Source: a virus
Reading direction: 5' to 3' (one strand)
Length of the DNA: 64,000 bases
IMG/VR virus record: IMGVR_UViG_3300043395_002432
Span: 75,497 to 139,496 of that record
Shown: piece after piece, positions 4,401 to 58,034 of the stretch
Numbering within the stretch: the first letter of the stretch is position 1
Layout of the letters: each line of letters starts with the position of its first letter
The notes under the pieces: generated by a model
Databases searched by the model: none
What the model was told of the DNA's origin: nothing
What the model saw: only the letters and a program-made list of their open reading frames with translations
Made by a program: the position numbers and the translations under genes

Positions 4401-4427
4401 GTTCTCCTCCAACGAATTCGAATTCGT

Positions 4428-6284
4428 TCACTCCTCGCGCCGACGCGATCTCCGATCCTGCTCATTGCGAATCCCGGTGAGGATCTTGGTGCGCCGGATC
4501 TCCTTTCGAAGCTGGATCAGCTCTCGCTCGAGCTTGAGCAACCGCGCCCGCTCCTGATCTCGACGAAGGCGCTCCGCCTTCTCGTCCGCACCAAGACGCC
4601 GAATCTCTCGAAGGAGCGTAGAGGACGTCGAAGCGTCGAGCGGATCGCGCTCAGTGAGGATCTTCTTGATCATCGGGTCAAGCACTGACTCTTGCGGTTC
4701 CTCGGGCATAGCTGCCTGCTGTGCCGCCATGATCTGCCCTTGTGCGCTTGCCTCGAGTTCCGCTTGCATGGCAGCAGCAGCACGATCCGCCTTCTCCTTC
4801 GCCTTGGTGACCTCACGCGCCTCCTGTTCAGAGAGACCGAACGCACGACGCAGAATGTCGTCCTTGGGAAAGAAGTCCACCATGCGGCTCGCAAGATCCG
4901 CCTTCGCGCTTAGCGCCTCGATCTGCGCCAGCTCGTTGATCTGCGACGGGGGCGTCATGTGAATGCTCCACTTCACCGCATCCGGGTCAATGCCCTTGGC
5001 AGTCAGGTGGTAGCGGCAGATCATGGACACGCCCGCGAGGATCTCGTTCTGAATTCGCTCCACGGTCGAAGCAAAGCGTGAGTCAAGCTGCGCGAGTGAA
5101 GCGCGAGTGTCGCCCTCTTCGAGCGAAAGATACGCCCGAGGAATCTTGAGCTTCGCCAAGACGTGCTTCAGGAAGTACTCAAGATCCTCGGTGTTCTGCC
5201 AATCCGCACCAGAGAGCATCTCGATCTCGGTGCTACGCTTCCCGTTCGAGGTCGCCACGAAGAAGTTCTCTTCTTGCCCAAGCGGGGAGGCGCGAAAGTC
5301 GATCTTCCCGTCAGGAGTCACAAACCGCTTCTTGGTGAGCATCGTCTTGGCGTTCTGAATGTGCGCCTGCGCCTGCTGCGTCGTCTTGCTGGTGGTGTCG
5401 ATGTAAAAGACGAAGCGAGCGGGTGAGCGCGTGAGCTTGTAGACAATGGCCGAGTCCTCGAGCAGGGTCAGCCGACGCCACGCCCAGATCGCGTCATGCA
5501 GGATTCCGTACCCGTAGACCGAGCTGCTCTCCCGAAGCCTCCAGTGAATGACCTCCCACGGCTCAAATGGCACCAAGCCCGTCGCACGAAGCTGCTCTTG
5601 GAGCTTCTGGTGGAAGAGCAACATGCTCCGAATGTCCTTGCTGTTTGGCTCAGGGATCGGCTTCTTCTTGATCTCCTGATACAGCACGGACGCCTGAACG
5701 TAAGCCTCCAACGAAAGCGTCCGCGAGGACAGTAGCTGTGCGAATCCAAGGTGCTTCCCGAGATCCGTCTCTACGCGGCGCATGCTGGAGGTCGGAAGGG
5801 GGCGAAAGCCCGCCACTCCCTCCTGCGAGTACGCGATCTCCGAGAAGCGATTTCCGTACAGGCAGAGCAGGCGAGCCGTCGAACGGAGGTCGTCCCCGAT
5901 CTTGAGCCGATCCAAAAGGTCGTTCAGCTCCTTCTGAATTCCCTCATGCTCAGAGACGCACCAGACCTTGCGGTTCTGGAGGTGATCCTTCTTGGTGCTG
6001 TCGTCAGCGTAAATATCCAACGCCGTCGACAGCACGGGGTACTCGGACATGGCCTCGTAGTCCGCATACCGATTCTGCAGGTCGATCTGCTGGCCAAAGG
6101 CGGAAGACAGGCCACCAAAGGGAGAGGCGGTCTGAAAGGGATGCTCCAGACCGTAAAAGCGGGGGGCGGGTTCCTCAGCACCAAGACCAGCCCCCTTAGG
6201 AAGCTCCTTGGTGGTTTCCTTGACGGAAGCCTTAGGAGCCTCCAGAAGGAGGCTCTGTCCCACGATCTTGCTGAACCAGCTCAT
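4428..6284 (-). CDS. Portal protein (T4 gp20-like)
   Basis: RYADYEAMSEYP..ALDIYADD, LLEDSAIVYKLTRSPARFVFYID, EDLEYF..LKIPRAYL, DSRFASTVERIQ. Confidence 0.93.
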   Translation of the reverse strand: MSWFSKIVGQSLLLEAPKASVKETTKELPKGAGLGAEEPAPRFYGLEHPFQTASPFGGLSSAFGQQIDLQNRYADYEAMSEYPVLSTALDIYADDSTKKDHLQNRKVWCVSEHEGIQKELNDLLDRLKIGDDLRSTARLLCLYGNRFSEIAYSQEGVAGFRPLPTSSMRRVETDLGKHLGFAQLLSSRTLSLEAYVQASVLYQEIKKKPIPEPNSKDIRSMLLFHQKLQEQLRATGLVPFEPWEVIHWRLRESSSVYGYGILHDAIWAWRRLTLLEDSAIVYKLTRSPARFVFYIDTTSKTTQQAQAHIQNAKTMLTKKRFVTPDGKIDFRASPLGQEENFFVATSNGKRSTEIEMLSGADWQNTEDLEYFLKHVLAKLKIPRAYLSLEEGDTRASLAQLDSRFASTVERIQNEILAGVSMICRYHLTAKGIDPDAVKWSIHMTPPSQINELAQIEALSAKADLASRMVDFFPKDDILRRAFGLSEQEAREVTKAKEKADRAAAAMQAELEASAQGQIMAAQQAAMPEEPQESVLDPMIKKILTERDPLDASTSSTLLREIRRLGADEKAERLRRDQERARLLKLERELIQLRKEIRRTKILTGIRNEQDRRSRRREE

Positions 6285-6324
6285 GCCCTGAGCTTACCCC
6301 ACACGGGGCAGTCGAGCGACTACT

Positions 6325-6798
6325 TCAGCTCCCCTGGAAGGGCTGGAGATCCTCGGGGACGTCGAAGAACTCCAGAGACTCATAGGCACGATCCTCGTCC
6401 TCAAGGCGGGTGAGGTCGTCCCGGTCGTCCTCAGCGTCGTCGTCGCCACGCCAGCCGTCGATCCCCATTTGGATCTGGTCGACCGCCTCTTGCAGCGTCG
6501 CTGCGCTGGCGACCGGGCAGGTGAACACCCAGCGATCCGTCGACACCGGATTGACGCGGATCGTGACCGCCTCAATCCAGTGGTCGGGGGAAGACCAGGG
6601 GAGAATGCCGACCGCGATCACGCCGAGGTCGAATTCGGCGCGCAGGCCGAGCTGGTCGGCGCGCATGAAGTGCCACACGCGCTCACGCTGAGCGCGCTCA
6701 TGGAGCGCCTCAGTGGTGAGGTGGATCGGGGCCGCGCTCGTCAGCGCGAGGGTGGCGGGGATCGAGGCGAGGGGGTTGGCGGTCGTCATGCCCCTCAT
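6325..6798 (-). CDS. Hypothetical protein
   Basis: Fills gap between portal and ParB genes; acidic C-terminus. Confidence 0.55.
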   Translation of the reverse strand: MRGMTTANPLASIPATLALTSAAPIHLTTEALHERAQRERVWHFMRADQLGLRAEFDLGVIAVGILPWSSPDHWIEAVTIRVNPVSTDRWVFTCPVASAATLQEAVDQIQMGIDGWRGDDDAEDDRDDLTRLEDEDRAYESLEFFDVPEDLQPFQGS

Positions 6799-6829
6799 GT
6801 ATCCCCAGCCTCATGGCTTGCCAGACCCC

Positions 6830-7753
6830 TTAGGCCGTCTTGACTTCTTCTTGACAGGATTCGTCCGCAGGAGGCGGGGGCGGATCTTCTGGTGCCGTAT
6901 CCTGCATGAGCGCAGCCGAAGGAACGTACCCATTCAAGAGATCGAGAAGGACGTCCGCAGGCTCGATCCCATTCTCCTTGAATCCCCGCAGCTTCTCATG
7001 TAAGAAGGCGAATCGCTCCTCGGAAGCCACGTTGACGTAAATATGATCCTTGCCCCCGTAGGAGAACACCAAGAAGTGCGAGCCAAGCTCATTGCCGTCC
7101 GTCGTGAACACCTTCGAGATGATGTTGCTCAGATCCTCGGGGGTCTTGGCCCCTGAAGCGGCTTTGTCGAACTCTTGGAGCTTCTTGCTTCGAGTCTGCT
7201 TGTCTACGCTGTCCAGGGCTTGCTTTACGGAGAGCCGAGCAGACGACAGGAGCTTTTCATACGACTTGTCGTCGGTGATGCCCATTGCCTCCTGAAGAAG
7301 CTCCGCCGGGTGGCGAAGGATCAGATCCATGTAGAGCTTCGAGAATTTCTCGGGACTCACCCTGCCGTGGATGAGGTTGAGCCTCATGGTGATCAGGTTG
7401 CGAAGATCCTTGCAGGCTTGGTCGTTGCCCGCGATCTTGGGATCGTGAATGATCATGGCGGGTATGGTCGTGTGGCCAAGCGAAGCGCACGCACGCATGC
7501 GATGCTCGCCACCAATGAGCTGGAACGTCCCATGTGGGGTCGGCCATACCTGAATAGGGGCGATCATCCCAACCTCTTGAATCTCCTTCACCAAGCGAGC
7601 GAACTCACGCTCGTTCATCGTGTTCGGATTCAGGGGATTCTTCTCGATCTTGGCGATCTCAAGAGCAGGATTGAAGTCGAGCGTATGGTGCGACGAAGTC
7701 GACTTCGCTGCCGTCGTTGCCAGAGCTTCTTGCGGATACATGACGTCGGACAT
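6830..7753 (-). CDS. ParB/Srx-like domain protein
   Basis: NPLNPN..LVKEIQEVGMIAPIQV..LIGGEHRMRA (GxxR motif). Confidence 0.85.
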   Translation of the reverse strand: MSDVMYPQEALATTAAKSTSSHHTLDFNPALEIAKIEKNPLNPNTMNEREFARLVKEIQEVGMIAPIQVWPTPHGTFQLIGGEHRMRACASLGHTTIPAMIIHDPKIAGNDQACKDLRNLITMRLNLIHGRVSPEKFSKLYMDLILRHPAELLQEAMGITDDKSYEKLLSSARLSVKQALDSVDKQTRSKKLQEFDKAASGAKTPEDLSNIISKVFTTDGNELGSHFLVFSYGGKDHIYVNVASEERFAFLHEKLRGFKENGIEPADVLLDLLNGYVPSAALMQDTAPEDPPPPPADESCQEEVKTA

Positions 7754-7762
7754 GCCTGCTCC

Positions 7763-8119
7763 TTAGCGTTTCTTTCCCTGGTTCTCTTCAAGCCAGAGAC
7801 GACCCCGCTCAGTCAGGATCGCCCACTCGATCTTGCGCGGGCCAGAAGACGAAGGACGCTCTTCGATCCGCACCAAGCCACGACGCTCGAGAGAGAAGTA
7901 CGTCGACCGATCATTGAACCCGTCGTTGTAGCCAGCCGAGATCAGCGCAACCTCTCCCCGTGAAGCCACGCGCTGAAGCGCCGTCCGCTGATTGTACCCA
8001 AGTGGTTTGGTGGTGACATCCACAAGCCCCCCACGAGCCATGTCGTCAAACAGCGGATCGGTCTCGGAAGAAGCCATGCCATAGTCTAACCGAAGACTTT
8101 GCAGGCTGTTTGCAATCAC
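7763..8119 (-). CDS. Small winged-helix-like hypothetical protein
   Basis: SLERRGLVRI...AILTERGR pattern typical of wHTH wings; coupled to upstream stop. Confidence 0.5.
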   Translation of the reverse strand: MIANSLQSLRLDYGMASSETDPLFDDMARGGLVDVTTKPLGYNQRTALQRVASRGEVALISAGYNDGFNDRSTYFSLERRGLVRIEERPSSSGPRKIEWAILTERGRLWLEENQGKKR

Positions 8120-9552
8120 TCACCAAAGAGTCCGACCTGCGCTTGACGAGGCTTCGGCTTCGTGGCTTCGTCGTAGCGGGGCCGCTGCGGAAGCCCCTGA
8201 ACCTCACGGGAGGCGTAGTCGCACCGACCGTAAATGACGGACTCCATCGCGGGATCTCGCTCAATGAGGGTGATCGACTGGCGATTCAGGACGGCAGCCA
8301 CGCCCGTGGTGCCAGAGCCTGCAAACGGATCGAGGATCTCGCCACCGGGGGCCGTGATGAGGTTCAGGCACCAACGCATCAGCTCCACAGGCTTCACAGA
8401 GACATGCGGATTCCAACGCTCGGTCTTGGTGCCGTCCGAATTGTCGAAGACCTTGAGCGGGGGCAGATGCTGCAAACCCAGATCCTTCTCCTCCAGGGTC
8501 GGCTTCGGGCAGTAGACGAAGCCGTCGTGATCCGTCCATTGGTGGTTGTTGAAGCGCATGCTCTCCGCCGAGAGCGGATCAGCGAACGGGTCGACCTGCC
8601 CATGCATCGCAAGCACAGGACAGCCCACGACGCACTTGGTGGAGGTGCATTCGAATGCGTGCGTCATGACCACGTTCGCCGGAAACCGCCCCATGTCGTA
8701 GCTCTGAGCAGGAAGCGAGCGATACTCCCCATGCGCGTTCGAATCGAGCAGCTTGCGCTTCCCTGAAGCCGTCACTCGCGCCCCCTCGGAGCCGATCCGG
8801 CAGGACTTGATGTTGAAGCCCCCCGTCCCCCACTTCAGCATGTTCTCCGCAATGGTCGCCTCACTGATCGGCTTCTGCACCACTGAGATCGGCTCGGTCG
8901 CAGGCTTCAGCCCTGAATGCCAATCCTCGAAACGCTTGCCCTCCTCAGAAGCGGGGTGAAGGCGACGGAAGACGCGACTCTCCCCGTCCCCGTATCCTAC
9001 GCTCGCCGTAGGATTGAGCAGCTTGGTGTGATCCCTTCCAGCCCCCCGATTCGACAGCTCCCCCTCACGGGAGCTGACACCAAGGTGGTCGTCGATGGCA
9101 AGCCCTATATTGAGACCCCGAGGCATCCCGGTCGCGTAGTGCCAAGTGATCATGCCGCGCTGCTGGAATCCCGCAAGACGAAGCGCCATCCCCATGAGGT
9201 CGAACGTGCGCGTCCCAGAGAAGGTCAGCAGGTAGCCCCCAGGACGAAGGACGCGAAAGCACTCGTACCAGAAATCTGGCCCAGGCACCCAGGCATCCCA
9301 CTCCTTCCCCCCGATCCCGCTCTTAGGCTTGGTGCGCGTCGCTGGCCCCGTGTACCGCTCCCCTCGAGCCTCCGCCTCCAGCACCAAGCGAAGCCACTCG
9401 CTCCACTCCAGAAGCACCTGACGCTGCATCCGCTCCTGCTCCTCCGCAGAGGAGAGACCATACGGAGCATCCGTCACAATGGCGTGGTAGTAGTTGTCGG
9501 GGATTTGGCGAAGGTACGCGAGGGAATCACCAATGTGTATCCTGGGAATCAT
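8116..9552 (-). CDS. DNA amino-methyltransferase (N4-C/N6-A, beta class)
   Basis: IHIGDSL..IVTDAPY (DPPY variant), GRFPANV, HVSVKPVELM, ILDPFAGSGTTG; start ATG 9552. Confidence 0.9.
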   Translation of the reverse strand: MIPRIHIGDSLAYLRQIPDNYYHAIVTDAPYGLSSAEEQERMQRQVLLEWSEWLRLVLEAEARGERYTGPATRTKPKSGIGGKEWDAWVPGPDFWYECFRVLRPGGYLLTFSGTRTFDLMGMALRLAGFQQRGMITWHYATGMPRGLNIGLAIDDHLGVSSREGELSNRGAGRDHTKLLNPTASVGYGDGESRVFRRLHPASEEGKRFEDWHSGLKPATEPISVVQKPISEATIAENMLKWGTGGFNIKSCRIGSEGARVTASGKRKLLDSNAHGEYRSLPAQSYDMGRFPANVVMTHAFECTSTKCVVGCPVLAMHGQVDPFADPLSAESMRFNNHQWTDHDGFVYCPKPTLEEKDLGLQHLPPLKVFDNSDGTKTERWNPHVSVKPVELMRWCLNLITAPGGEILDPFAGSGTTGVAAVLNRQSITLIERDPAMESVIYGRCDYASREVQGLPQRPRYDEATKPKPRQAQVGLFGE

Positions 9553-9590
9553 GAACGCTCCGTGATAGGGCGATCTATCACAGGATCGGG

Positions 9591-10085
9591 TCATGTGCCT
9601 TCGGAGGGAGCCACCAAGCCGCGATCCCGAGCGTTCGAGAGCGCGATCCGAATCGCGGAGAGCAGCGTCTTCGGCATCGGATCGTCCGGGGCGAGCGTTA
9701 GCCACGGGAGGGGGACGTAGCGCGTGTCGAGCGGGTCTTGGTGGATTACCAATTGCCACCCCGCGCACTCGGGGTCGTAGTCCTCGTCCTCGGGAATGAG
9801 CGTGTAGTACTCCAAGCTCAACGAGGTCTCCGCCTCGATCTCGTCGATGTCCGTCTCGCAAAGGATCAACGCGAGAATCCACAAGCCAAGCTGGTAGCCT
9901 GCAGGACGATGCAGGGGAATCCTCCGCTCTTGCTCCCCCGTCTCCTTCGACTTCCAATTCCAGTCAGGAATGAAGTCGGAATTGTTCTGCCAGGGGTGAA
10001 AGCCAAGCACCATGCGCGTGATCGGCGCAAGGACGGTGCGGACGGAGCCAGGAAGGCGGTTGACGCGAATGAAGTAGCTGTCCAT
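9591..10085 (-). CDS. Hypothetical protein
   Basis: Protein-like composition, fills gap between terminase and MTase. Confidence 0.55.
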   Translation of the reverse strand: MDSYFIRVNRLPGSVRTVLAPITRMVLGFHPWQNNSDFIPDWNWKSKETGEQERRIPLHRPAGYQLGLWILALILCETDIDEIEAETSLSLEYYTLIPEDEDYDPECAGWQLVIHQDPLDTRYVPLPWLTLAPDDPMPKTLLSAIRIALSNARDRGLVAPSEGT

Positions 10086-10148
10086 CGGGTTCCCTCTCGC
10101 TCCCTTGTTCGATTCCTCCTTGGTGGGCAAACGAATTCGAATTCGTCT

Positions 10149-12434
10149 TCAGCCCATGATGAAGGGAGGGGCGGGGACGTCCGGGTTCGCGTCGCTCGTC
10201 CCCTTCTTCGTCTCAAGCCCCGCGTCGTTGAGCCGCTCTACAGGGGCGTACTCGCGCCGATCCAGCTCCGTCATGCCGCCCCCGTCCCACTCTCGCCAGT
10301 TCTCGGGGGTCTTCGAAGGGGAAACCCACTCCAACCCGTCCTCCTCTGTGGTGCCATTCGGATACTCCCGAGCAGCCTCAATCGCCTTCTGCGTTAGGAT
10401 CGGATCAGGCTCAGGGGCAGCACCACGAAGGTGACGTAGCTCCACGTTTTGGTGCCGGAACGGCGCTCGAGGATTGATCGAGTCCTGCGTGACCCAATGC
10501 GTGTCCTCGAGATCCGCCCCCCCATGCACCAAGTCCGAATCAATGTACGACGCCTGCCGAAGGGCCATCAATTCAAGGTTCGTCACCACGCCAGCCACAG
10601 CGTCAGACGTGTCCTTCGATCCACCAAGCGGGTGATCCACCTTCCGCGACAGCGGGTCGTACTCGAGCTGCTTCATCTCGGTCAGGAAGGGTTCGTACTC
10701 GTACATCCGAACACGCCCCTCCATGAGCGCGTTTCGAAGCGCCTCATACGCCTCCGTCCCGTCGTCCACCGAGAGGAGGTTCGCCGGTATCCCATTGTCA
10801 CGAAGGATCTGGATTCCGTCCGCTGACTGATACTTGTCCAACGTCGTCAACGCTATCTCGAAGCCATGATCCCGAAGCGCGTAAATCAACGCCCGAATCT
10901 CTTGAAGCAGGATGTACTCTCCGCTCGGAGGCTTCACCCTCAAGACGAAGTCGATCTCGATCTCAGGCGCTGACTCGAAGTAGGTCTCCGCAAAGTCAGG
11001 CGAACGCCGCTCGACCTGCACCAAGCGCGTCGTATGCCCCATGCTGATCCCAAGCCCGTCTCGCGCCAACGACTGATCGACATGGATCACACGAACCGAG
11101 TCAGGGTGACGACGCGGAACCCAACGATACTCATGATGCCCCATGCCAACCTTGATCTTCTTTCGCTCACACAAGACGTCCCAAAGCGGGAGTAGCTTGC
11201 TCTGAAGAATCCAAGTCTCGCTCGAGAAGGGATGCTTCAGCTCTGGACGGATCGTAGGACGGTACAAGCACGCTTGAATCGTCAAGAAGGACGCCACAGC
11301 GTCCGTAGCCATGCCAGCAACGTCCTGAATGCTCGACACGAGGTTGATCTGAAACTCCTTGACGTACTCAAACGGGACGTTGATGATCGTACTCCCGTCC
11401 CGAAGTGCCGATGGATGCACCTCCTCCTTCGGGGCCAGAATGCGAGAGCGTGTCGACCCCTGCCCCACCAAGACTCGGAAGTACTTGCCACTGAAGCTCT
11501 CGGCAGGCTTGACGTCCCACGTCGCCTTGTCAACCACGTAGGTGGTCGGATCGTTCTTTCGCTCGTTCACGCGACGCGCCGAGAACGAATTCGAAGTCGT
11601 CTTCGAGGACATCAGTACCGTCTTCATCGGCACCTTGCCCCCAGAGAGGAAACGGCTCTTGATACGATTCGTGAGCGTGACATACACACGCTCCGCAAGA
11701 TCGAAATTCGCCGCCGTCATCGTCTGCCCAGGGGACTGAATGACAGGCTTCTTCCGGCGTCCCATGAAGTTCGTCTCGTCCATGAGGAAGCCAACGACGT
11801 CAAGACCCAGCGCACGCTCAGAGTTGACGGAGCCAATCTCTACAATAATGCTCTTCGGAAAGCGAATCCCGTCCGCCCTCTCCGTCCAGGGAAACTCCTT
11901 CTTGAAGTAGGGCGAGCTGCTGATCTTCTCCATCACCTTGCCAAGCACGACGCTCTTTGCAAGGTGCAAGCTCTTCGACATGCAGAAGAGGTATATGTTG
12001 GAAGTAGGCGCAATCCCAAGCGCAGACTGCGGGGAACGCATACACGAAAGCTCGTAGAGCTGCCGACAGAAGATGATCGACCCAAGGAAGGTCTTTCCCC
12101 AACCCGTCGACCCTGTCAGGATAATGTCAATGTACCGATCCGCCTCGAAGATTCGATCCAGCTCGTCCTTCAGCGGCTCGTAAAGCGACTCGCACGATTT
12201 CCCGAGAAAGTATGGATCTTGCACGAAGGTTCGTATATCTACCGGCTCCCGATCAAAGACCGCACGCGAGATCGCTTGGTAGGTGCTGTTCGAGCCTATC
12301 GCCGCCTCTTGGATCATTCGAAGGAAGAGCCTCCGCTGCTCGGGCTTGAGTGAGGCTATGGAGTCCTCGATGAGCGCAGCCTCCTCCTCCTTGGTGCGAA
12401 TGTGATGCGAACGCCCACCGCGATTCCGTATCAC
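10149..12434 (-). CDS. terL: Terminase large subunit
   Basis: Walker A GSTGWGKT, Walker B FLMDE, nuclease IHVDQS..DG, KVDHPLGGSKDTSDAVAG. Confidence 0.92.
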   Translation of the reverse strand: MIRNRGGRSHHIRTKEEEAALIEDSIASLKPEQRRLFLRMIQEAAIGSNSTYQAISRAVFDREPVDIRTFVQDPYFLGKSCESLYEPLKDELDRIFEADRYIDIILTGSTGWGKTFLGSIIFCRQLYELSCMRSPQSALGIAPTSNIYLFCMSKSLHLAKSVVLGKVMEKISSSPYFKKEFPWTERADGIRFPKSIIVEIGSVNSERALGLDVVGFLMDETNFMGRRKKPVIQSPGQTMTAANFDLAERVYVTLTNRIKSRFLSGGKVPMKTVLMSSKTTSNSFSARRVNERKNDPTTYVVDKATWDVKPAESFSGKYFRVLVGQGSTRSRILAPKEEVHPSALRDGSTIINVPFEYVKEFQINLVSSIQDVAGMATDAVASFLTIQACLYRPTIRPELKHPFSSETWILQSKLLPLWDVLCERKKIKVGMGHHEYRWVPRRHPDSVRVIHVDQSLARDGLGISMGHTTRLVQVERRSPDFAETYFESAPEIEIDFVLRVKPPSGEYILLQEIRALIYALRDHGFEIALTTLDKYQSADGIQILRDNGIPANLLSVDDGTEAYEALRNALMEGRVRMYEYEPFLTEMKQLEYDPLSRKVDHPLGGSKDTSDAVAGVVTNLELMALRQASYIDSDLVHGGADLEDTHWVTQDSINPRAPFRHQNVELRHLRGAAPEPDPILTQKAIEAAREYPNGTTEEDGLEWVSPSKTPENWREWDGGGMTELDRREYAPVERLNDAGLETKKGTSDANPDVPAPPFIMG

Positions 12435-27037: not shown

Positions 27038-27699
27038 TTCCTACTCCTTACGCGCTGAACGATCCCGAAGTGCGTCCGTCTCCCGTGCGCCGGGGCAACC
27101 CCGATCCCCTCCCCCTCCGTCGCTAACGGGATCGGAAAGAACCTAAGCCACGGTCGGCTCCCGAAAGAGATAGGATCGAGGACGTCCTCCGTCCGTAAAA
27201 AGCTCGCAAAGCCCCACCTCGGCTTATCGCCGTCTAACGTGTAGATTTGATAAATCGCCCCAGGGTACAAAACCGTTGGAAGCGGACTTACCCAACAGAA
27301 CTTGAACTCGTTGACCGCATACGCCGTCTGCCCAAGCGAATGCTGTATCCAGAACCGCTCCTCGTCTTGCGGCTTGTACATCTTGGTGCGACGAGGACGA
27401 CCAGCCGCAGGATCTCGAATCGGAAGGTACGGAGCCGTTGGATTCTCCGCGATCAGCTCTGCCTGCATTCGCACCAACGCCTGAAGGAGCGCACGCCCTT
27501 CCGGCCCCTCGGGAACAACAAGCTCTACCTTCTCGGGAGGCGCACCCTCGATCTCGTCGACATGCCCCCTCCGCTTCTTCTCTCTCTTTTCCGCACGCTG
27601 TTCTGCGAGTTTCCGATGTTGCTCCGCAATCCTCCGCGACCGCGCCCCTTCCCTCGTCGCTTCCTTCTCGGTCGCTTCCTTCTCGACCCTGCGCCTCAC
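27022..27699 (-). CDS. Hypothetical protein
   Basis: GTG start overlapping MTase stop (GTGA). Confidence 0.5.
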   Translation of the reverse strand: MRRRVEKEATEKEATREGARSRRIAEQHRKLAEQRAEKREKKRRGHVDEIEGAPPEKVELVVPEGPEGRALLQALVRMQAELIAENPTAPYLPIRDPAAGRPRRTKMYKPQDEERFWIQHSLGQTAYAVNEFKFCWVSPLPTVLYPGAIYQIYTLDGDKPRWGFASFLRTEDVLDPISFGSRPWLRFFPIPLATEGEGIGVAPAHGRRTHFGIVQRVRSRKCGKK

Positions 27700-28403
27700 T
27701 CCACACCCCCCATGAATGCCCGCAGCAGATCCTCTGCCTTCTCGATGCGGGACGCGTCCGAATCGAACCCAATGTAGCGACGCTTGGTGCGGTGACACGC
27801 ACGAGCCAACGGCCCAAGCCCAGAAAAGATGTCCACCACCAAGTCCCCTGGCTCCGTCCACCGCTCGATCCACTGAGCCATCCAATCCGTGGGCTTCTCG
27901 GAATGCTGCCGCCGCTGCGAAGCATGACCATTGCGAAGCGCACCAAAGTGGTTCGTGAGATGCACCCCCTTGGTGTAGAGCAACACAAGCTCAGCCGCAC
28001 CAAGCCAATGATGCCCAACGCCGCCACCGTCCTTCACCCACGCACCTCCAGAGACGTAGCGCCACTTCAGGTCGTGTGACTCATGGAACCACCGCTCGAG
28101 AAGCGGAAACGTCGCCCACATGGCCAGCCGAACCCCACGCTCCTTGGTGCGCTCCTCAGGAAAAGCAGCATGCACGCGATTCAACGCACGCACGATGTCG
28201 CCCATGCTCATGTTCGCGTAGTGCTTCTCGATCTCCGCCACGTCGGCCCGACCGTAGAGACCCCCCTCATACGTCCACGGCGGATCAGCCACCACCAAAG
28301 AGGCGTCCGCGATGCAAGCGAAGTCGACTTCGTTGACGTCCCCCTGGACGAAGCGAATCTCAGGGGGAAGGGCTGTGGGCTTCAGATCAGGGAAGAGCTG
28401 CAT
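27696..28403 (-). CDS. DNA/RNA N6-adenine methyltransferase (MT-A70-like)
   Basis: VVADPPWTY, HYANMS, LAMWAT, WVK, HSEKP, VVDIFSGLG. Confidence 0.82.
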   Translation of the reverse strand: MQLFPDLKPTALPPEIRFVQGDVNEVDFACIADASLVVADPPWTYEGGLYGRADVAEIEKHYANMSMGDIVRALNRVHAAFPEERTKERGVRLAMWATFPLLERWFHESHDLKWRYVSGGAWVKDGGGVGHHWLGAAELVLLYTKGVHLTNHFGALRNGHASQRRQHSEKPTDWMAQWIERWTEPGDLVVDIFSGLGPLARACHRTKRRYIGFDSDASRIEKAEDLLRAFMGGVE

Positions 28404-43753: not shown

Positions 43754-44575
43754 TCAGAACGCGGAGATCGAAGGGATCGCCTCCCGCGACCGGGCCAACG
43801 TGATCGAGTAGCTCTGACCAGAATGCTCCCGAGCCAGCTCCGCGTACTTCCGAGCCAGCTCATGGGTATTGGTGCTGTTCGAGATATGCCCCACCACCAA
43901 GTGCCGAAGCGAGGGCGTATTCCCAACGAGAAGCCTGTAAGCCTGCTCATTGCTCAGATGCCCGTAGTCCCCGCGAATTCGCGTTCGCACCGACGACGGG
44001 TACTCTGAATTCAGGAGCATCTCAGGGTCGTGATTGAATTCCATCACCAAGATCTCGACCTCTTTCAGCCGCTCCCGAATCACCGAGGTCGCCCGACCCA
44101 GATCCGTACAGACCATTGCCGTCGAATGGCTGTTGGACACCAAGAAGCACACAGGCTCCCGAGTGTCATGCGGAACAGGGATCGCCTCAATCTTTAGGTG
44201 CTTGACGAAGAAGACCGAACGCTCGATCACCTCTTGGCACCGAATCTTGCCCCGCTCCAGATTCTTCGACCCCTCCCACGTCCCCCGCGTAGCCCACACG
44301 TCAGGCATGCAGCCCCGGCCAGCCAACGCCCGCTGCACAACGCCAACGCCACCAACATGGTCGATATGCTCATGCGTAATGAGGATCGAATCAATCGGGT
44401 GGCGCTCTAAACCCCCAGCAGCCTCTAAGCCTTGCTGAAGCCTCATGTTCGACCCACCGCAGTCGATCAGAACGCCAGCATGATCGTCCCCTACCCAGGT
44501 GCAATTGCCTTGCGACCCCGAGGTGAGGGAAAGAAGCCGAAGAGGCTTTGCCAGCCGAACCCCCCTCAGGCGCAT
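43754..44575 (-). CDS. MBL-fold metallo-hydrolase (YycJ/WalJ-like)
   Basis: SGSQGNC, LIDCG, THEHIDH, HDTREP, TDLG, EFNHDPEML, GHLSN, GHIS. Confidence 0.88.
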   Translation of the reverse strand: MRLRGVRLAKPLRLLSLTSGSQGNCTWVGDDHAGVLIDCGGSNMRLQQGLEAAGGLERHPIDSILITHEHIDHVGGVGVVQRALAGRGCMPDVWATRGTWEGSKNLERGKIRCQEVIERSVFFVKHLKIEAIPVPHDTREPVCFLVSNSHSTAMVCTDLGRATSVIRERLKEVEILVMEFNHDPEMLLNSEYPSSVRTRIRGDYGHLSNEQAYRLLVGNTPSLRHLVVGHISNSTNTHELARKYAELAREHSGQSYSITLARSREAIPSISAF

Positions 44576-51343: not shown

Positions 51344-51568
51344 TTAGACTGGAGAAGGCTTTGCAGCAACCCTTCGAAAGAAGTCCGTCAATTCACGCAT
51401 GCGATGAATCCCTTTCAGCTCTGTGAGTGAGGGGATCTTGCATTCCGCGTGTGCCAAGATGCCAGAAGCACCAAGGATCATGTACTCAAGCCCGCTTTGG
51501 TGCAGGTAGAGCTTCATGGGGACGACGGCGGCGTCCTCAGAGTGAAAGCGCCACGCCTCAAGGCTCAC
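51344..51568 (-). CDS. Small hypothetical protein
   Basis: GTGA coupling. Confidence 0.5.
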   Translation of the reverse strand: MSLEAWRFHSEDAAVVPMKLYLHQSGLEYMILGASGILAHAECKIPSLTELKGIHRMRELTDFFRRVAAKPSPV

Positions 51569-51834
51569 TTCAACGCCTCTTGCATGACTTGCTCGACGTT
51601 CGGAAAGATCCCCAGGCAGCCCGGAGTGGAAGCGAGGATCTTGGCGAGCGTATCAGAGAACGTGTAGCGTGCGCTTAGCTCCGGGCTAAGCACCAGAATC
51701 CGAGAGCGCAGGGGGTCGTAGCGCACGACGCCCCCAGCACGAACCTTCTCGCGGATCTTCTCAACGACGGCAGCCGAATCACGCATGTCTTTTCCCTCCG
51801 CAGCTAAAGTAGCGTGTCCGACCGCCCCTTGCAT
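51565..51834 (-). CDS. Small hypothetical protein
   Basis: Follows Hen1-ligase gene; start may be the internal Met with GGAGG RBS. Confidence 0.5.
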   Translation of the reverse strand: MQGAVGHATLAAEGKDMRDSAAVVEKIREKVRAGGVVRYDPLRSRILVLSPELSARYTFSDTLAKILASTPGCLGIFPNVEQVMQEALK

Positions 51835-54449
51835 CAGAGACGAGGATCGAGGCTTCCGTCGTCAAGCGAGTGCAGCCGCAGACACGCCTCGGCGCAAGCG
51901 TACCGATCCCCCTCGTACCAAGCCTTGAGCGCCTTCTCGGCCATCCGGGTCTCGTTCGACGCCTGAGCCATCTTGCGGCCCACGGAGCGGTTCTGAAGCC
52001 GCCCCAGGTAGTCAGGGTACTCGGGGCCGTAGATCAGCCTGAGGTACTCAGGACGCCGCACCTTGATCGCTGGCGCAATCGAATTCGTTTCCAGCCCCTG
52101 CATGACCTTGAGATCCGCCTCCGCCGTAGAGCGACGCTGCCTCATCGAGGGCATGGGCTTGACGACGAAGCCCTCCAGATCGGGGGCAGCGGAGAGGAGG
52201 AAACGCCCCTCAACGAAGCTGCGGGCGACCAATTTCCGCCCAAAGGGTTGATCCAGCCACACCGTGTAGTCGGAGATCCCTCGAATCGCTCCTTCGTCTC
52301 CCAAGAGGCACGCAAGCTCCTCTCGGAAGGTGCGATCAGGATCTCCGATCATGAGGCTCTTTCGGGCCTTATCGAGCGCCGGAGTGCGGACGTTCCACAC
52401 CCTGTAGTGAACCTCCGAGGAAGCCCCGAAGATGTTGAGCTGGTTGCGGTAGGCTACAAGGTGCTTCAAGCGCCGCTCCTCGTAGAGATCGGGCCGATGC
52501 TTCTCGGCATGCGAGGCGAGGGCGGCAACGGGGCCGAAGGTATCCTCGATCAAGCCCCGAGCCTTCAGGCTCCAGGGCATCAATTCGCCGTCGAGGAGGA
52601 TCGGGGTGCCGTACCGCTGCACCAAGGTGTCGAGGGTGGGCTTTGCCCTCTCGAGGAACTCGGCCTCTTGCTCGGGGCGAAAGAACCGCATCCCTGCGCG
52701 AGAATGGAACTTCCACTCCTTCCCGTCCTGTGAGGAGGCGATCATGCGGCTGCCCATGTACTTATACTCTACGACGACCCGGTCGACGCCGACGCTCTCG
52801 TAGTAGCGGAAGGCTGCCTCAGGATGCTCGAGCAGTTGGTGCGCTGGGTGATCTGCACTCTCCTCTCGCAGCGACCGCATGATGCTCCCAGAGGGCGGGG
52901 GGATCGTGGCAGGCACGCAGGGAAGATCCCAGGGCGCTCCCTTGGTGCGGAGCCAAGACTCCAGCACGACCTTCGAGGGAAGCTCGAGGAGCGGCTCACG
53001 CGCCCAGGGGTCGGGGGGGCAGAAGCAGACCACGGCACCTTGTGTTGGCGCTCCGTACTTCTCGCTCTCGGAATTCTCCTGATCGACCCCGAACACCTTG
53101 CAAACTTGCCAGATCCCCTCCTTCTCGAGGCGGGTGAGGAACGCCCCGAATTCTTCACGCGTCCACTCGAAGGTGTGATCCCAATGGCGCAGTCCTTCGA
53201 GGTTCCAGGCGGCGTTGTACTCTCGATTCGGCGTCGTGATCAGCATGTGCTTGCCACCAAGCTGCTCGCGGAGCGCCTGCATGCAGAAGTCCACCATGTT
53301 CGGCGGGAGATGCTCGATCACCTCGACGAAGAGGAAGAGGTCGGCGGCTACGATCTCGGCGGGGAGCTTGAACCCGACCGCCCCTCGAACGACGGTGGCG
53401 CGCTTGAACGCCCCTGGTGCGGAACGCTTCTGGTTGCGCCGGAACCACTCTCGCTCCTCACCAAGCGGCTCCATGCCGATCATGGCCACGTTCTGCGTGT
53501 CTGCTCCGGGGAGAAGCGGGGCGAGCATGCGAAGGAAGCGACCGCCCCCACAGCCGAGGTCTGCGATCAGGCAGTCGCCCTTCATGAACGGAATGAGCTG
53601 CTCTGCGGTGACCTCTACCCGCCGCTGATACAGCGTGACGGTCTCCCCCTTGCCGCCCACGTCCTCCTCGCGCTCGGGCTGCGGCTCGACCTCGGAGGGA
53701 GGGAGGCTCGCGTCGAGAAGCTGCCGCTGCTTGCGGTTGTCCGTGAGCGAGTGAACGATCCGCGCCCGCATGCTTGGTGCAATGCTCGAGATCCAGCCCT
53801 CCATGAGCTTCGCTTGCGCCTTGACGTCGTCCTCGGAGAGGGGGTAGTGCCGATCCGAGGAAAGGACTCGCACCAACGTCACGATCTTCTGAAAGATCTC
53901 GTCGATGGAACCCTCGATCTCCAGCGAGAGATCCGCGAACTGCCCCACCAAGCCCCCGCCGTCCCAGCTCCCGTAGAGGTAGATCGGGCTGGGGCAGGGA
54001 CTCCCCTCAGACGGAACGAAGCCCAGGGCAGCCGCAACCTCGCCCACCACGCGCTCGTTCCTCCAGCCCGAGGAGAGCCTGAGGTTCGGGATCTGCATCC
54101 GAACCCGCATGTGCGGATCACACTTCGACGTCGCCTCCTCGGGGAAATTCCCCTTCAGCGGGGTCTTCCACATGCGGGCGAACGCCGAAATTCCCCTCGA
54201 GTCCGTCTGGTACGGGGCCGAGGTGACGTAGGGGGCGAGCGGGAAGCCAGAAGACCCCGTGATCACCAACGTCTCAGGCTCAAGGTGCAGGCTCGTCGTG
54301 ACCTTGAGCCAGTCCTCGCCCTGAACGAATTCGACTTCGCACTGCCCGACCCCCGCTCGCTTCGGGGCTTGCGGCGATGCGGGATTCTTGCCGAGCAGCC
54401 ACCCCACCGAGAGGGGATCGGCTACCAGAAACCAGAGGATGATCTTCAT
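51834..54449 (-). CDS. Hen1 (activation + 2'-O-methyltransferase) fused to Pnkp ligase domain
   Basis: WLLGKNP..PYVTSAPY (Hen1 N-half); DLGCGGG, EVIEHL, TTPNREYN, RHWDHTFEWTREEF (Hen1 MTase); LEHPEAAF, EYKYMGSR, LDGELMPWS, EGFVVKP, PAIKVRRPEYLRLIYGPEY, DPRL (Pnkp ligase). Confidence 0.9.
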   Translation of the reverse strand: MKIILWFLVADPLSVGWLLGKNPASPQAPKRAGVGQCEVEFVQGEDWLKVTTSLHLEPETLVITGSSGFPLAPYVTSAPYQTDSRGISAFARMWKTPLKGNFPEEATSKCDPHMRVRMQIPNLRLSSGWRNERVVGEVAAALGFVPSEGSPCPSPIYLYGSWDGGGLVGQFADLSLEIEGSIDEIFQKIVTLVRVLSSDRHYPLSEDDVKAQAKLMEGWISSIAPSMRARIVHSLTDNRKQRQLLDASLPPSEVEPQPEREEDVGGKGETVTLYQRRVEVTAEQLIPFMKGDCLIADLGCGGGRFLRMLAPLLPGADTQNVAMIGMEPLGEEREWFRRNQKRSAPGAFKRATVVRGAVGFKLPAEIVAADLFLFVEVIEHLPPNMVDFCMQALREQLGGKHMLITTPNREYNAAWNLEGLRHWDHTFEWTREEFGAFLTRLEKEGIWQVCKVFGVDQENSESEKYGAPTQGAVVCFCPPDPWAREPLLELPSKVVLESWLRTKGAPWDLPCVPATIPPPSGSIMRSLREESADHPAHQLLEHPEAAFRYYESVGVDRVVVEYKYMGSRMIASSQDGKEWKFHSRAGMRFFRPEQEAEFLERAKPTLDTLVQRYGTPILLDGELMPWSLKARGLIEDTFGPVAALASHAEKHRPDLYEERRLKHLVAYRNQLNIFGASSEVHYRVWNVRTPALDKARKSLMIGDPDRTFREELACLLGDEGAIRGISDYTVWLDQPFGRKLVARSFVEGRFLLSAAPDLEGFVVKPMPSMRQRRSTAEADLKVMQGLETNSIAPAIKVRRPEYLRLIYGPEYPDYLGRLQNRSVGRKMAQASNETRMAEKALKAWYEGDRYACAEACLRLHSLDDGSLDPRL

Positions 54450-54500: not shown

Positions 54501-54529
54501 GGACTATACCTCCTGCATGAGGAGGTGCC

Positions 54530-54832
54530 ATGAAGACCGACAACGACCCCAATGTAGTCAAGGGCATGCCGGTTCATTTAGCTGTCGGCTCCATCCTTCG
54601 TGGTTGGAATTCGACACGATCAAAGCTGATTGAGGTGGCGAACGAATGCGACTCGATTGCCAAGCGAACTCACGATCCCGACGTGGCCTCACTCGCGGAA
54701 GAGTTGAAGAAGGCTGCGTTGGTGCTGGTCAATATCGGAGAGCTTTTATCGGTGTTTCATCAGTACATTCCCACCAAGAAGGTCTCTTGGTGGGAGAAGG
54801 CTGTGGCGATCTTCACGATCTTGAAACAGTAG
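54530..54832 (+). CDS. Hypothetical protein (only credible plus-strand gene)
   Basis: GAGGAGG RBS, fills a gap with no minus-strand gene, lower GC. Confidence 0.7.
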   Translation: MKTDNDPNVVKGMPVHLAVGSILRGWNSTRSKLIEVANECDSIAKRTHDPDVASLAEELKKAALVLVNIGELLSVFHQYIPTKKVSWWEKAVAIFTILKQ

Positions 54833-56340: not shown

Positions 56341-57258
56341 CTACTTTGCAGCACCTTGACGAAGTCGAATTCGTTGACCACCCCCGGATGGGGCAGCGAC
56401 ACGCTTGGTGCTTTGGTAGAGGTACTCGTTCGCCTCAGAGGTCGCCCCCACGGAAGCCCCAATGGAACGACGCTCTCGGATCGGCGTGCGCTTCCCAAGG
56501 AAGCCCCAAGCCTCATCCGCCAACGCGCAAGCGGGCTGGCTCACCAAGAGGAGGATGCGATCCCCGAGAGCTGCGAGAAGCCGCTGGCAGATCCGCGAGA
56601 GGACGTTGAGGTGAGTCACACCAAAGGCTGCCGAGTAGCCAGTGAATTCCCCCGAGGCTCCAGTGACGTAAGGCGGATCGAGGTAGACAACGACTCGGTC
56701 GTATCCCGAGAGATCCTCCTCGAGGAGGCGAAGAAGCACCTCGTTCACCCCCCTCGCCTCAAGCCGAATGTCCCCCTGGCGCAGCGCCTCGGCAGCAGAG
56801 AAGAGCATCTCCCGCTGATCCTCAGGAAGCCCCTGAAGACTCCCGCCCCACGACACGTTGAATTCCCCCCGCTGGTTCGTTCGCCATAGACCGTTGAATC
56901 CGTAGCGCGAGAGGAACACCAAGAGGGCCGCTCGCTCGAGCGCAGATCCCGCCCCCGAGTTGAACCTCGCCTTGCGAAGCTCCCAGAGCGTCTCCGTGTT
57001 TCCCTCTAATGCCATGAGCGCGTCCCACACCCCTTGCGGATCGTCTCGGATCGCGGTGTACGCCCCCATGAGGTCAGCGTTGTAGTCCGAGAGGTGCGCC
57101 CGCTTGAACCTTGGTGCGAAGGCTAAGCCCACAGCGCCGCCACCCAAGAACGGCTCGACGTAGAGACACCGACTCAGATCCAGATCCGCGAAGCCTGCCG
57201 AGATGTCCGCAAGCTGCCTGCGCTTTCCCCCTGGCCACTTGATGAAAGGCGTTGCCAT
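56341..57258 (-). CDS. dam: Dam-like DNA adenine methyltransferase (alpha class)
   Basis: PFIKWPGGKR, YVEPFLGGGAV, GFNGLWRTNQRGEFNV, VYLDPPY. Confidence 0.9.
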   Translation of the reverse strand: MATPFIKWPGGKRRQLADISAGFADLDLSRCLYVEPFLGGGAVGLAFAPRFKRAHLSDYNADLMGAYTAIRDDPQGVWDALMALEGNTETLWELRKARFNSGAGSALERAALLVFLSRYGFNGLWRTNQRGEFNVSWGGSLQGLPEDQREMLFSAAEALRQGDIRLEARGVNEVLLRLLEEDLSGYDRVVVYLDPPYVTGASGEFTGYSAAFGVTHLNVLSRICQRLLAALGDRILLLVSQPACALADEAWGFLGKRTPIRERRSIGASVGATSEANEYLYQSTKRVAAPSGGGQRIRLRQGAAK

Positions 57259-57269
57259 GCTCTCCTCCT

Positions 57270-58034
57270 TTAGAACTTCGAATTCCGCTTGCCCCACGAC
57301 CATGACGCGATCACAGCCCCGCTCGGACGAGAAGTGATCTGGAGCTTGGAACCACCAAGCGTCTCCAGCGGCGTCCCGTACACCAAGTGCCGAAACTGAA
57401 CCAAATGCTCCAACAGCGCGGCTCCCGTGATCTCCACCCCCTCAAGCATCTCTCGATCCAACTTCGGAAGCGTCCCCATGAGTTCCCGACGAAAGAGATC
57501 CCGTACTACGGCCACCAAGTACCGCCCCATCTCCTTCCCCGACATGAGGAACCAGACGTCGTAGAGCTTGAACGTCGAGTCAACGCTCCCGTCAAAACGA
57601 ATCTCCTCATCCCCGAAATTCATCCGGTGGTATTTCGCTTTTCGAGAGACGGGCTGGATCTGGATCGGGCGAGCGAAGTAATAGCCACCGCTCTTATACT
57701 TGCAGTGCCAGATCCTGGCCTTCATGCTCGCCCAGACCTCGGGGTGCTTCTTGAGATACGGGTACGCCTCAAGGATCGGGGCAAGCACCTTGTTGCGCTT
57801 GACCCGATCCTCCAAGACCTCCTCGGGCGACCAGCTCGCCTTCTTCGCCCGGTACTCCGCCGACAAGGCGCGATAGTGCTGCTGCCTCCAGCGCAGTAGC
57901 TCCTCATTGGCCGCACCGGGCGGACGCACCAAGACCAGCCGACGCTCTCGCAAGAGCTGCTTGAGATGCTCCGTTGGTGCTAAGGAATTCCCCTCACCTG
58001 AATGTTGTGCTTCTGAAGAATGATCCTCACCCAT
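57270..58034 (-). CDS. Hypothetical protein
   Basis: ORF track; start uncertain. Confidence 0.55.
   Translation of the reverse strand: MGEDHSSEAQHSGEGNSLAPTEHLKQLLRERRLVLVRPPGAANEELLRWRQQHYRALSAEYRAKKASWSPEEVLEDRVKRNKVLAPILEAYPYLKKHPEVWASMKARIWHCKYKSGGYYFARPIQIQPVSRKAKYHRMNFGDEEIRFDGSVDSTFKLYDVWFLMSGKEMGRYLVAVVRDLFRRELMGTLPKLDREMLEGVEITGAALLEHLVQFRHLVYGTPLETLGGSKLQITSRPSGAVIASWSWGKRNSKF

Follow-up and report, generated by a model that had tools for sequence, protein, structure and literature searches.

The gene described here lies at positions 51834..54449, on the minus strand, of a 64,000-nucleotide stretch of viral DNA (below, the window) and encodes a single-chain fusion of the RNA 2'-O-methyltransferase Hen1 with an RNA ligase of the Pnkp type (Rnl4). 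The window comprises bases 75497-139496, that is, the final 64 kb, of the linear 139,496-bp IMG/VR record IMGVR_UViG_3300043395_002432, which is estimated to be 68% complete. The architecture of the gene, its motifs, the selection acting on it, its recurrence and its phage context are established by the results given below, and its product is probably a functional RNA 'methylate-and-seal' enzyme of a large phage. By its sequence the protein belongs to the Rnl4 ligases and is distantly related to Hen1; it is not a Pnkp, because the two domains that define Pnkp, the kinase and the metallophosphoesterase, are absent. Its parts are ordinary and it is not a new kind of system; the main value of the finding is a large, unstudied phage family in which a switch otherwise made of two proteins occurs naturally as one chain. 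The gene and its modules are the following:

51834..54449, minus strand: whole open reading frame, combining Hen1 (N domain and 2'-O-methyltransferase) and a Pnkp-type (Rnl4) RNA ligase in a single chain
53784..54410, minus strand: Hen1 N-terminal ligase-activating domain, residues 14-222 (Pfam Hen1_L; PDB 4dqz)
53031..53573, minus strand: Hen1 3'-terminal ribose 2'-O-methyltransferase domain, residues 293-473 (PDB 3jwg/3jwh/3jwi; conserved columns)
52842..53030, minus strand: residues 474-536, a linker leading into the ligase module and including its beginning (bridged by independent contigs and by L105)
51837..52841, minus strand: Pnkp-type (Rnl4) ATP-dependent RNA ligase domain, residues 537-871 (Pfam PNKP_ligase; PDB 3ty9/4drf; invariant columns)

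The open reading frame (ORF) starts with ATG, occupies exactly these coordinates and runs uninterrupted for 871 amino acids. Its guanine-plus-cytosine (GC) content by codon position (0.65/0.45/0.82) is the same as in the other genes of the phage, and a 544-aa ORF on the opposite strand has the codon-position GC pattern of a shadow frame. The N-terminal part matched the Pfam family Hen1_L (PF12623) over residues 14-222, with an E value of 5.8e-12 and 45.7 bits against a cut-off of 23, and in a PDB sequence search the Hen1 N domain 4dqz aligned with residues 13-221 (E 1.4e-6). In the following part, class-I methyltransferase models fell on residues 295-424 with E values of 1e-4 to 2e-2, under the Pfam cut-offs, and the PDB search returned Hen1 methyltransferase structures (3jwg at E 6e-13; 3jwg, 3jwh and 3jwi at about 1e-12). 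Both parts together were covered by the NCBIfam model of bacterial Hen1, TIGR04074, residues 15-473 being aligned to profile positions 14-459 of 462.

The C-terminal half was recognised by PNKP_ligase (PF16542) over residues 537-653 and a second stretch, with E 2.6e-36 and 126 bits against a cut-off of 28.2, and its nearest PDB entries were those of the CthPnkp ligase domain (3ty9 and 4drf/4e6n, E about 4e-21); the Rnl protein of the three-component system (4xrp_B) was a far weaker match in the same search (E 3.9e-6). The last 82 residues align through the chain end of CthPnkp, with which they share a terminal DPRL. The middle of the ligase, about residues 654-789, where CthPnkp has its insertion module, was not aligned by the Pfam and PDB sequence searches, its length being similar to that of the CthPnkp stretch. 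The model of bacterial Pnkp, TIGR04075, was matched in the ligase part only (profile positions 499-631 and 764-851 of 851). Neither TIGR04075 nor AAA_33 revealed in the ORF the N-terminal P-loop polynucleotide 5'-kinase of Pnkp, and no Metallophos match was obtained there for its central binuclear metallophosphoesterase (2',3'-phosphatase). Residues 474-536, for which no family match was found in Pfam and NCBIfam, occupy the place taken in the two-gene system by the hen1 stop codon and the kinase-phosphatase half of pnkp. An identical sequence is contained in the ESM Atlas, where the model (predicted template-modelling score, pTM, 0.69) fits Hen1 clusters with residues 1-478 (template-modelling score 0.76 by target) and Pnkp ligase clusters with residues 363/480-871.

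Conservation of individual residues was assessed in an alignment of the window protein with six other fused proteins of 25-34% identity (7 sequences). The S-adenosylmethionine (SAM) motif D297-G299-G301-G303 and the Hen1 metal ligands E376, E379, H380 and H425 were invariant in all seven, as were R421, H422 and D424, H425 being located within R421-H422-x-D424-H425. In the available text of PMC10781085, members of the Hen1 family are described as having an E-x-x-E-H...H metal site and a DxGCG SAM motif. In the ligase, K563, D620, E622, E759, G760, K764, K796 and R798 were invariant; the lysine-AMP motif K-Y-M-G-S-R, which holds K563, aligns to the lysine of K-H-M-G-S-R in 3ty9 and 4drf. Thus the proposal of the first-pass annotation that three modules are combined in one 871-aa frame was borne out by the ORF list and by the Pfam, NCBIfam and PDB matches, and its claim that the methyltransferase and ligase catalytic motifs are intact by the seven-sequence alignment.

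The possibility that the fusion had been caused by an assembly error, which would have undermined that proposal, was rejected, as the junction was recovered from three independent data sets. A contig from another assembly, L105, is 95.95% identical over 2988 nt and carries residues 296-871 in one frame. Logan contigs from two further samples of other studies span the methyltransferase-ligase junction at DNA positions 52847-53027: one of 2143 nt from run X3, with 0 differences, and one of 568 nt from run X4, with 6. Between the fusion gene and L105, 15 synonymous and 5 non-synonymous codon differences were counted in 576 codons, and this synonymous excess indicates that the gene is under purifying selection. 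One of the differences, Y562H, restores the canonical K-H-M-G-S-R in L105.

The fusion is a widespread phage gene family which has no name of its own. In an exhaustive search of 1.84 billion protein-cluster representatives, the best 150 of 1486 matches (E<=1e-3) were classified as 75 fused, 58 Hen1-only, 9 ligase-only and 7 kinase/phosphatase-ligase proteins and 1 fragment of the query, in a ranking that favours fusions because both halves score. Of the fused representatives, 68/75 were at least 750 aa long, and regular expressions detected E-x-x-E-H in 67/68 of these, K-x-x-G-x-R in 67/68, D-x-E-x-x-P in 65/68 and a Walker A motif in only 2/68. A word-indexed search gave, among the best 120 of 705 matches, 7 proteins with both Hen1_L and PNKP_ligase (one of them, in a Treponema genome, is named 'Hen1'), the rest being Hen1 proteins of about 480 aa. 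None of the 80 best of 641 relatives in GTDB genomes was fused, a sample that gives no estimate of frequency, and 2 of the best 80 metagenome loci were (L105 and L106); these samples of 80 were ranked in the same way as the best 150 and consist mostly of the ordinary hen1-pnkp pair. Among GenBank phages there were 4 weak partial matches and no fusion.

Viral metagenomes were richer in this respect. A first scan of IMG/VR found 2 fused loci in 5, and a second one, seeded with the largest fused clade, gave an uninterrupted fusion in 8 of 23 loci; the remainder were 1 frame-interrupted fusion (L195), 1 partial, 2 split healing-free pairs (L197 and L207), 1 ligase-only locus, 8 canonical pairs and 2 loci with three separate genes. 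In all, nine other IMG/VR contigs bear an uninterrupted fused ORF (L008, L012 and L187-L193), their lengths ranging from 32 to 275 kb and their GC content from 0.25 to 0.65. The fused form is therefore a major variant in IMG/VR beside the split healing-free pairs. The databases call these proteins 'SAM-dependent methyltransferase', 'methyltransferase domain-containing protein', 'hypothetical protein' or similar. No description of a Hen1-ligase fusion or of healing-free phage modules was found in searches of full-text literature, and prior mention is possible, the key comparative survey being outside their coverage; a term search of the available text of the Pnkp1-Rnl-Hen1 paper (PMC4411300) gave no mention of such a fusion either. 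The architecture had been noted initially as unfamiliar; it proved not to be rare, with 75 fusions in the best 150 matches and the nine other viral contigs, although no paper describing it was found.

It had also been assumed that the fusion is rearranged, and this has to be abandoned, as Hen1 followed by the ligase is the usual order of the two genes: hen1 is immediately upstream of pnkp and on the same strand in 60/85 and 55/80 loci of the two-gene system. Since the domain order equals the gene order, the fusion corresponds to an in-frame loss of the hen1 stop codon together with the kinase-phosphatase half of pnkp. Trees of the ligase domain were constructed with FastTree (116 rows) and IQ-TREE (62 rows). 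In the former, the window protein belongs to a small, all-fused group (12 rows, support 97), whereas the majority of the fusions are united in a single deep clade of 59 rows (support 100), the viral L012 and L106 among them, and 11 fusions are nested among canonical Pnkp ligases. IQ-TREE recovered the big clade (16/16 sampled rows, support 100); there, the wider group of the window protein was weakly supported and its closest set comprised 4 rows (support 99). A single origin of all fusions was rejected by 144 log-likelihood units (approximately unbiased (AU) test, p 3e-14), the group having been defined after seeing the tree. Because the AU test rejects the grouping of all fusions, fusion, or its reversal, must have occurred repeatedly.

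Among the closest known systems is the two-component Pnkp-Hen1 of Clostridium thermocellum and Anabaena variabilis, which has the same Hen1 N, methyltransferase and Rnl4 ligase domains and which the fused protein would resemble in its working, apart from the healing. In that system, according to the available text of PMC4411300, the Hen1 N domain activates the Pnkp ligase by locking open its blocking insertion domain, so that methylation can precede sealing, and the repaired junction carries a 2'-O-methyl group. The protein studied here, in contrast, is one polypeptide, is phage-borne, is strongly divergent (25-31% identity) and wholly lacks the Pnkp kinase and metallophosphoesterase. The kinase-phosphatase half, which in the heterotetramer is expected to join two Pnkp-C-Hen1 units (PMC4411300, available text), is absent here. 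The Capnocytophaga Pnkp1-Rnl-Hen1 complex (4xrp/4xru; same source) is similar in that its ligase stands apart from the kinase-phosphatase and is activated by the Hen1 N domain, and therefore healing can come from a separate subunit; in it, however, separate Rnl and Hen1 proteins are held in a ring by Pnkp1, instead of being encoded by a single ORF, and no Pnkp1-like kinase-phosphatase gene was found in the 139.5-kb record. A Pnkp and Hen1 pair is likewise carried by the Xanthomonas jumbo phage XacN1 (ORF197/198; PMC5852040), which has kept the full Pnkp, and full hen1-pnkp pairs also occur in IMG/VR (L010, L198, L199, L201, L204, L206 and others). In outline, Pnkp and Rnl1 of T4, phage enzymes which undo the anticodon-loop cleavage by PrrC, are comparable, but the T4 ligase is of an unrelated family, there is no methylation step, and T4 has a kinase-phosphatase of its own, whereas no PNK3P-type phosphatase was found in this record.

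By analogy with these systems, we infer the activities of the protein, its substrate and its role in counter-defence. The Rnl4-type ligase domain would seal a break through lysyl-AMP formed at K563, leaving at the junction a 2'-O-methyl group and so barring transesterifying ribotoxins from a second cut. In the two-protein system the ligase is unlocked by the Hen1 N domain; the fused protein retains this domain, which presumably does the same in cis. Healing would be the task of other enzymes, of the phage or of the host, or might be unneeded for some breaks. The role put forward in the first-pass annotation, in which tRNA cut by anticodon nucleases is resealed and immunised with healing in trans, stays a hypothesis. 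As all three modules needed to methylate and seal are kept, a phage enzyme repairing tRNA, or another stem-loop RNA, with its activator tethered in cis is the most likely interpretation. Rnl4 ligases, and likewise Rnl1, seal breaks in stem-loops, as described in the available part of PMC4408790. The genomic context also points toward repair of tRNA or other RNA. The record contains 25 tRNA genes, a second, Rnl2-like ligase and a 2H phosphoesterase, and an Rnl2-like ligase and a Thg1-like protein accompany the fusion in L008. The features in question, together with a small protein from the tRNA cluster, are:

L003:10468-17113 (the same in G000, 10.5-17.1 kb; outside the window): 25 tRNA genes (ARAGORN), two with odd anticodon loops
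L003:1132-2271 (the same in G000; outside the window), minus strand: second RNA ligase, Rnl2-like, 379 aa (Pfam RNA_ligase E 9e-13; phrog_548 E 9e-33)
L006:8773-9363 (G000:63773-64363; outside the window), minus strand: 2H phosphoesterase, 196 aa (Pfam 2_5_RNA_ligase2 E 4.4e-8)
G000:14679-15149 (inside the tRNA cluster), minus strand: CX5R-like protein P0122, 156 aa (C-x5-R motif; DSPc E 0.007)

The tRNA cluster is about 110 kb away from the fusion gene. The Rnl2-like ligase carries K-L-H-G-T-N and has a 399-aa shadow ORF on its other strand. The 2H phosphoesterase (P0121) has two H-x-T motifs and is located between two gp19-like tail tube genes. In L008 (positions 5224-12400, GC 0.40), an 809-aa fusion stands head to head with an Rnl2-like ligase (PHA02142 OB domain and RNA_ligase); with a Thg1-like tRNA-His guanylyltransferase and a TnsA-like endonuclease encoded close by, this region forms a small tRNA-repair island.

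A separate problem is the source of end healing. The earlier annotation had stated that no kinase or phosphatase domain occurs in the gene or elsewhere in the window, and this was confirmed by Pfam, which found no such family among 70 picked window ORFs (E<=1e-3), and by six-frame searches. The latter, extended to the whole 139,496-bp record, detected no Pnkp healing module (TIGR04075), Metallophos, PNK3P, RtcB or HAD phosphatase. Two sub-threshold matches to AAA_33 were the only ones in the record, and they were rejected as kinases, being an AAA ATPase and a DnaC/IstB-like protein of 207 aa; a kinase or phosphatase hidden in the ORF or the record was rejected as well, given the negative or sub-threshold results with TIGR04075, AAA_33, Metallophos, PNK3P and RtcB. 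No 5'-kinase candidate was thus found in the 139.5 kb. The suggestion that a kinase-phosphatase might be encoded elsewhere in the genome was therefore not upheld for the canonical enzymes within this record of about 68% completeness, although two non-canonical candidates emerged outside the window. The 2H protein could clear cyclic phosphates, as has been proposed for jumbo phages; the available text of PMC7824862 presents phage 2H enzymes as proposed to remove cyclic phosphate ends for ATP-dependent ligases. The CX5R-like protein P0122 is a possible cysteine phosphatase in view of its motif and of a DSPc match in Pfam, which is very weak; it had no phosphatase match in PDB.

Healing genes were encountered next to the fusion in relatives. 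Five fusion-bearing phages (G005-G009) were inspected, all from the other clade than the window protein. In G005, the record of L187 (22% complete), a 239-aa metallophosphoesterase (3877-4518) lies 0.7 kb upstream of the 848-aa fused Hen1-ligase (5216-7759), and a 314-aa protein (10785-11747), with an N-terminal half of no assigned family and a C-terminal AAA_33 kinase, lies 3 kb downstream, so that this 8-kb region looks like a 'disassembled' Pnkp-Hen1 system. A similar AAA_33 kinase protein, of 331 aa, is encoded 3 kb upstream of the fusion in G006 (91% complete). A metallophosphoesterase is found 6 kb from the fusion in G007 (48% complete) and 9 kb from it in G008 (39% complete), with AAA_33 absent from both. 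Phages with the fusion thus often, though not always, have separate healing genes near it, and G005 and G006, with a stand-alone kinase and/or metallophosphoesterase within 4 kb, are precedents for healing in trans.

Several observations speak against a functional methylate-and-seal enzyme of the kind proposed above. There is no polynucleotide kinase in 139.5 kb of a record that is about 68% complete, an absence which is not provable for the phage, as a third of the genome is missing. G009, which is complete and has direct terminal repeats, contains the fused gene and a deoxynucleoside monophosphate (dNMP) kinase only, with no metallophosphoesterase, and therefore canonical healing encoded by the phage is not a rule. 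The 2H protein may not be a healing enzyme, as it could equally be an Acb1-like enzyme directed against the cyclic-oligonucleotide-based antiphage signalling system (CBASS); its only match in PDB, to Acb1 (7t26), is non-significant (E 0.19). The protein is divergent: its TIGR04074 score is only 132.6 bits, against a curated equivalog cut-off of 340, and it should therefore be considered a divergent Hen1 relative and not an equivalog, and the Pfam methyltransferase models, as mentioned, remain under their cut-offs. The insertion-module region, about residues 654-789, was left unmatched by the Pfam and PDB sequence searches. Transcription is not proved by the five small contigs from two wastewater RNA libraries (X23 and X24) that fall inside the gene, as they are too small and of uncertain origin. 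Finally, in the complete 188-kb phage L011, which has terminal repeats and is closely related to L106 in this region, the ligase half alone is present. Comparison of L011:9199-10990 with L106:1385-5606 showed the ligase to be 95% identical to residues 417-841 of the L106 fusion, about 2.4 kb including the Hen1 half being absent; this is either a decaying gene or a ligase able to stand without Hen1.

An alternative to healing in trans would be that no healing is needed. PIN/VapC-like and TOPRIM-type tRNases leave 3'-OH/5'-phosphate ends. An enzyme specialised for the breaks made by such metal-dependent tRNases (PIN/VapC-like ones, or TOPRIM effectors of the OLD/PARIS kind) might have shed the kinase and phosphatase as useless, an idea we regard as unlikely, if worth keeping in mind. 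It would agree with the lack of a canonical healing enzyme in the 139.5 kb and in the complete relative G009, and with the wide recurrence of healing-free modules, fused and split, in phages; according to the available part of 10.64898/2026.07.10.737580, tRNA is commonly cut by defence nucleases, those of the TOPRIM type among them. On the other hand, a 2'-O-methyl group guards chiefly against nucleases that use the 2'-OH as a nucleophile, and the cyclic phosphate ends left by these need healing, so that the intact Hen1 active site fits better the class of nucleases leaving cyclic phosphates. Moreover, healing genes are retained close to the fusion in G005 and G006, and the window phage has the 2H phosphoesterase.

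A broader version of this idea, which we offer tentatively and consider rather doubtful, is that healing-free Hen1-Rnl4 enzymes, fused or split, might make up a phage-specific counter-defence class distinct from the cellular Pnkp-Hen1, the kinase and phosphatase being shed for either of two reasons. One would be direct resealing and 2'-O-methylation of 3'-OH/5'-phosphate cuts introduced by metal-dependent antiphage tRNases; the other, teaming with non-canonical healers such as the 2H phosphoesterase or the CX5R-like protein. If this were true, host and phage tRNAs would be made permanently immune to the defence nuclease.

It is also conceivable, with a distinctly low probability, that the enzyme is not involved in counter-defence and processes or marks RNAs of the phage itself, either by capping the 3' ends of tRNAs or small RNAs with 2'-O-methyl against exonucleases or tailing, or by joining or circularising RNA during maturation of the 25-tRNA cluster. 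The size of this cluster would be in line with such a role, and eukaryotic Hen1 homologues protect the 3' ends of small RNAs, as described in the available text of PMC10781085. In addition, the fusion has neither a defence nor an anti-defence gene linked to it, and four fusion-bearing phage contigs have no conserved neighbour in common. Against this, the pairing of Hen1 N with Rnl4 is known only from RNA repair systems, as far as the available text of PMC4411300 goes, the fusion gene is distant from the tRNA cluster, and ARAGORN called no intron in the tRNA genes, so that a splicing ligase is not obviously needed. The view that the gene is chimeric through misassembly, or is an inactive relic of a deletion that removed the healing half of pnkp, is very improbable and already largely refuted: the fusion does equal the deletion product of a hen1-pnkp pair, and a ligase-only gene in L011 and a frame-interrupted copy in L195 exist, but the junction is present in three independent data sets, synonymous differences prevail, 65-67 of the 68 full-length fused representatives retain the catalytic motifs, and deep, well-supported all-fused clades were recovered in both trees.

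Returning to RNA repair by a single-chain enzyme, its significance would be as follows. Pnkp-Hen1 is the classic example of a repair from which an RNA emerges better protected than before, and little is known of its natural targets or of the biological setting in which it acts; a large and diverse phage family of single-chain methylate-and-seal proteins puts this chemistry into the arms race between phage and host over tRNA. The question is thereby raised as to which enzymes do the healing, or which defence nucleases produce ends that can be joined as they are. Such a compact enzyme is suited to studies of the gating of the ligase by the Hen1 N domain in cis, and a single chain able both to join RNA and to leave a 2'-O-methyl mark at the junction is a possible tool.

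The phage origin of the DNA, assumed from the beginning, is supported by the T4-like portal, prohead protease, Gp23-type capsid, sheath and baseplate. The source is a large tailed phage with T4-like modules, of which the window contains the portal, the prohead protease, a UvsX-like recombinase, a class II ribonucleotide reductase, a DnaB-like helicase, a primase, several DNA methyltransferases and an endolysin. In the remaining 75 kb of the record, where genes were re-called by third-position GC and 30 further ORFs scanned, the Gp23-type capsid, sheath, tube, baseplate, ThyX and clamp were found. No GenBank phage has a capsid protein more than about 26% identical to the one encoded here, and the sequencing runs containing this DNA are freshwater and riverine metagenomes.

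The fusion gene probably heads a transcription unit. Its immediate surroundings comprise the following elements:

54503..54531, minus strand: promoter-like site, ATGGCA and TATAGT spaced by 17 nt, some 55 nt upstream of the ATG (consensus scan)
54530-54832, plus strand: divergent 100-aa ORF directly upstream of the fusion, on a strand otherwise rarely used
51344-51834, minus strand: two small ORFs (89 and 74 aa) downstream of the fusion, the first overlapping its stop codon by one base

The promoter-like site is weak, as 1 was found against 0.5 expected in shuffled sequences. No PHROGs or Pfam match was obtained for seven flanking small or unassigned ORFs, and the three small ORFs listed here are likewise devoid of family matches. 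This phage shares no neighbour of the fusion gene with L008, L012, L106, L010 or L011, and none is conserved across four fusion-bearing phage contigs; a conserved neighbour acting as a hidden partner was rejected, none being common to the contigs compared.

Elsewhere in the window, at 43754-44575 (minus strand), a hydrolase of the metallo-beta-lactamase fold is encoded (phrog_392; Lactamase_B_2, E 7e-20). It also resembles the anti-Pycsar protein Apyc1, at a level below threshold (19 bits where the cut-off is 50; E 8.5e-4), and may be a counter-defence gene whose product degrades cyclic nucleotides. The record also contains a ParB-like nuclease and four DNA methyltransferases (three of the N6/N4 type and one Dam-like), at these positions:

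window 6830-7753, 8116-9957, 27696-28403 and 56341-57303, and L003:8747-9832, all minus strand: ParB-like nuclease and methyltransferase genes

The presence of four methyltransferases suggests heavy anti-restriction methylation of the phage DNA.

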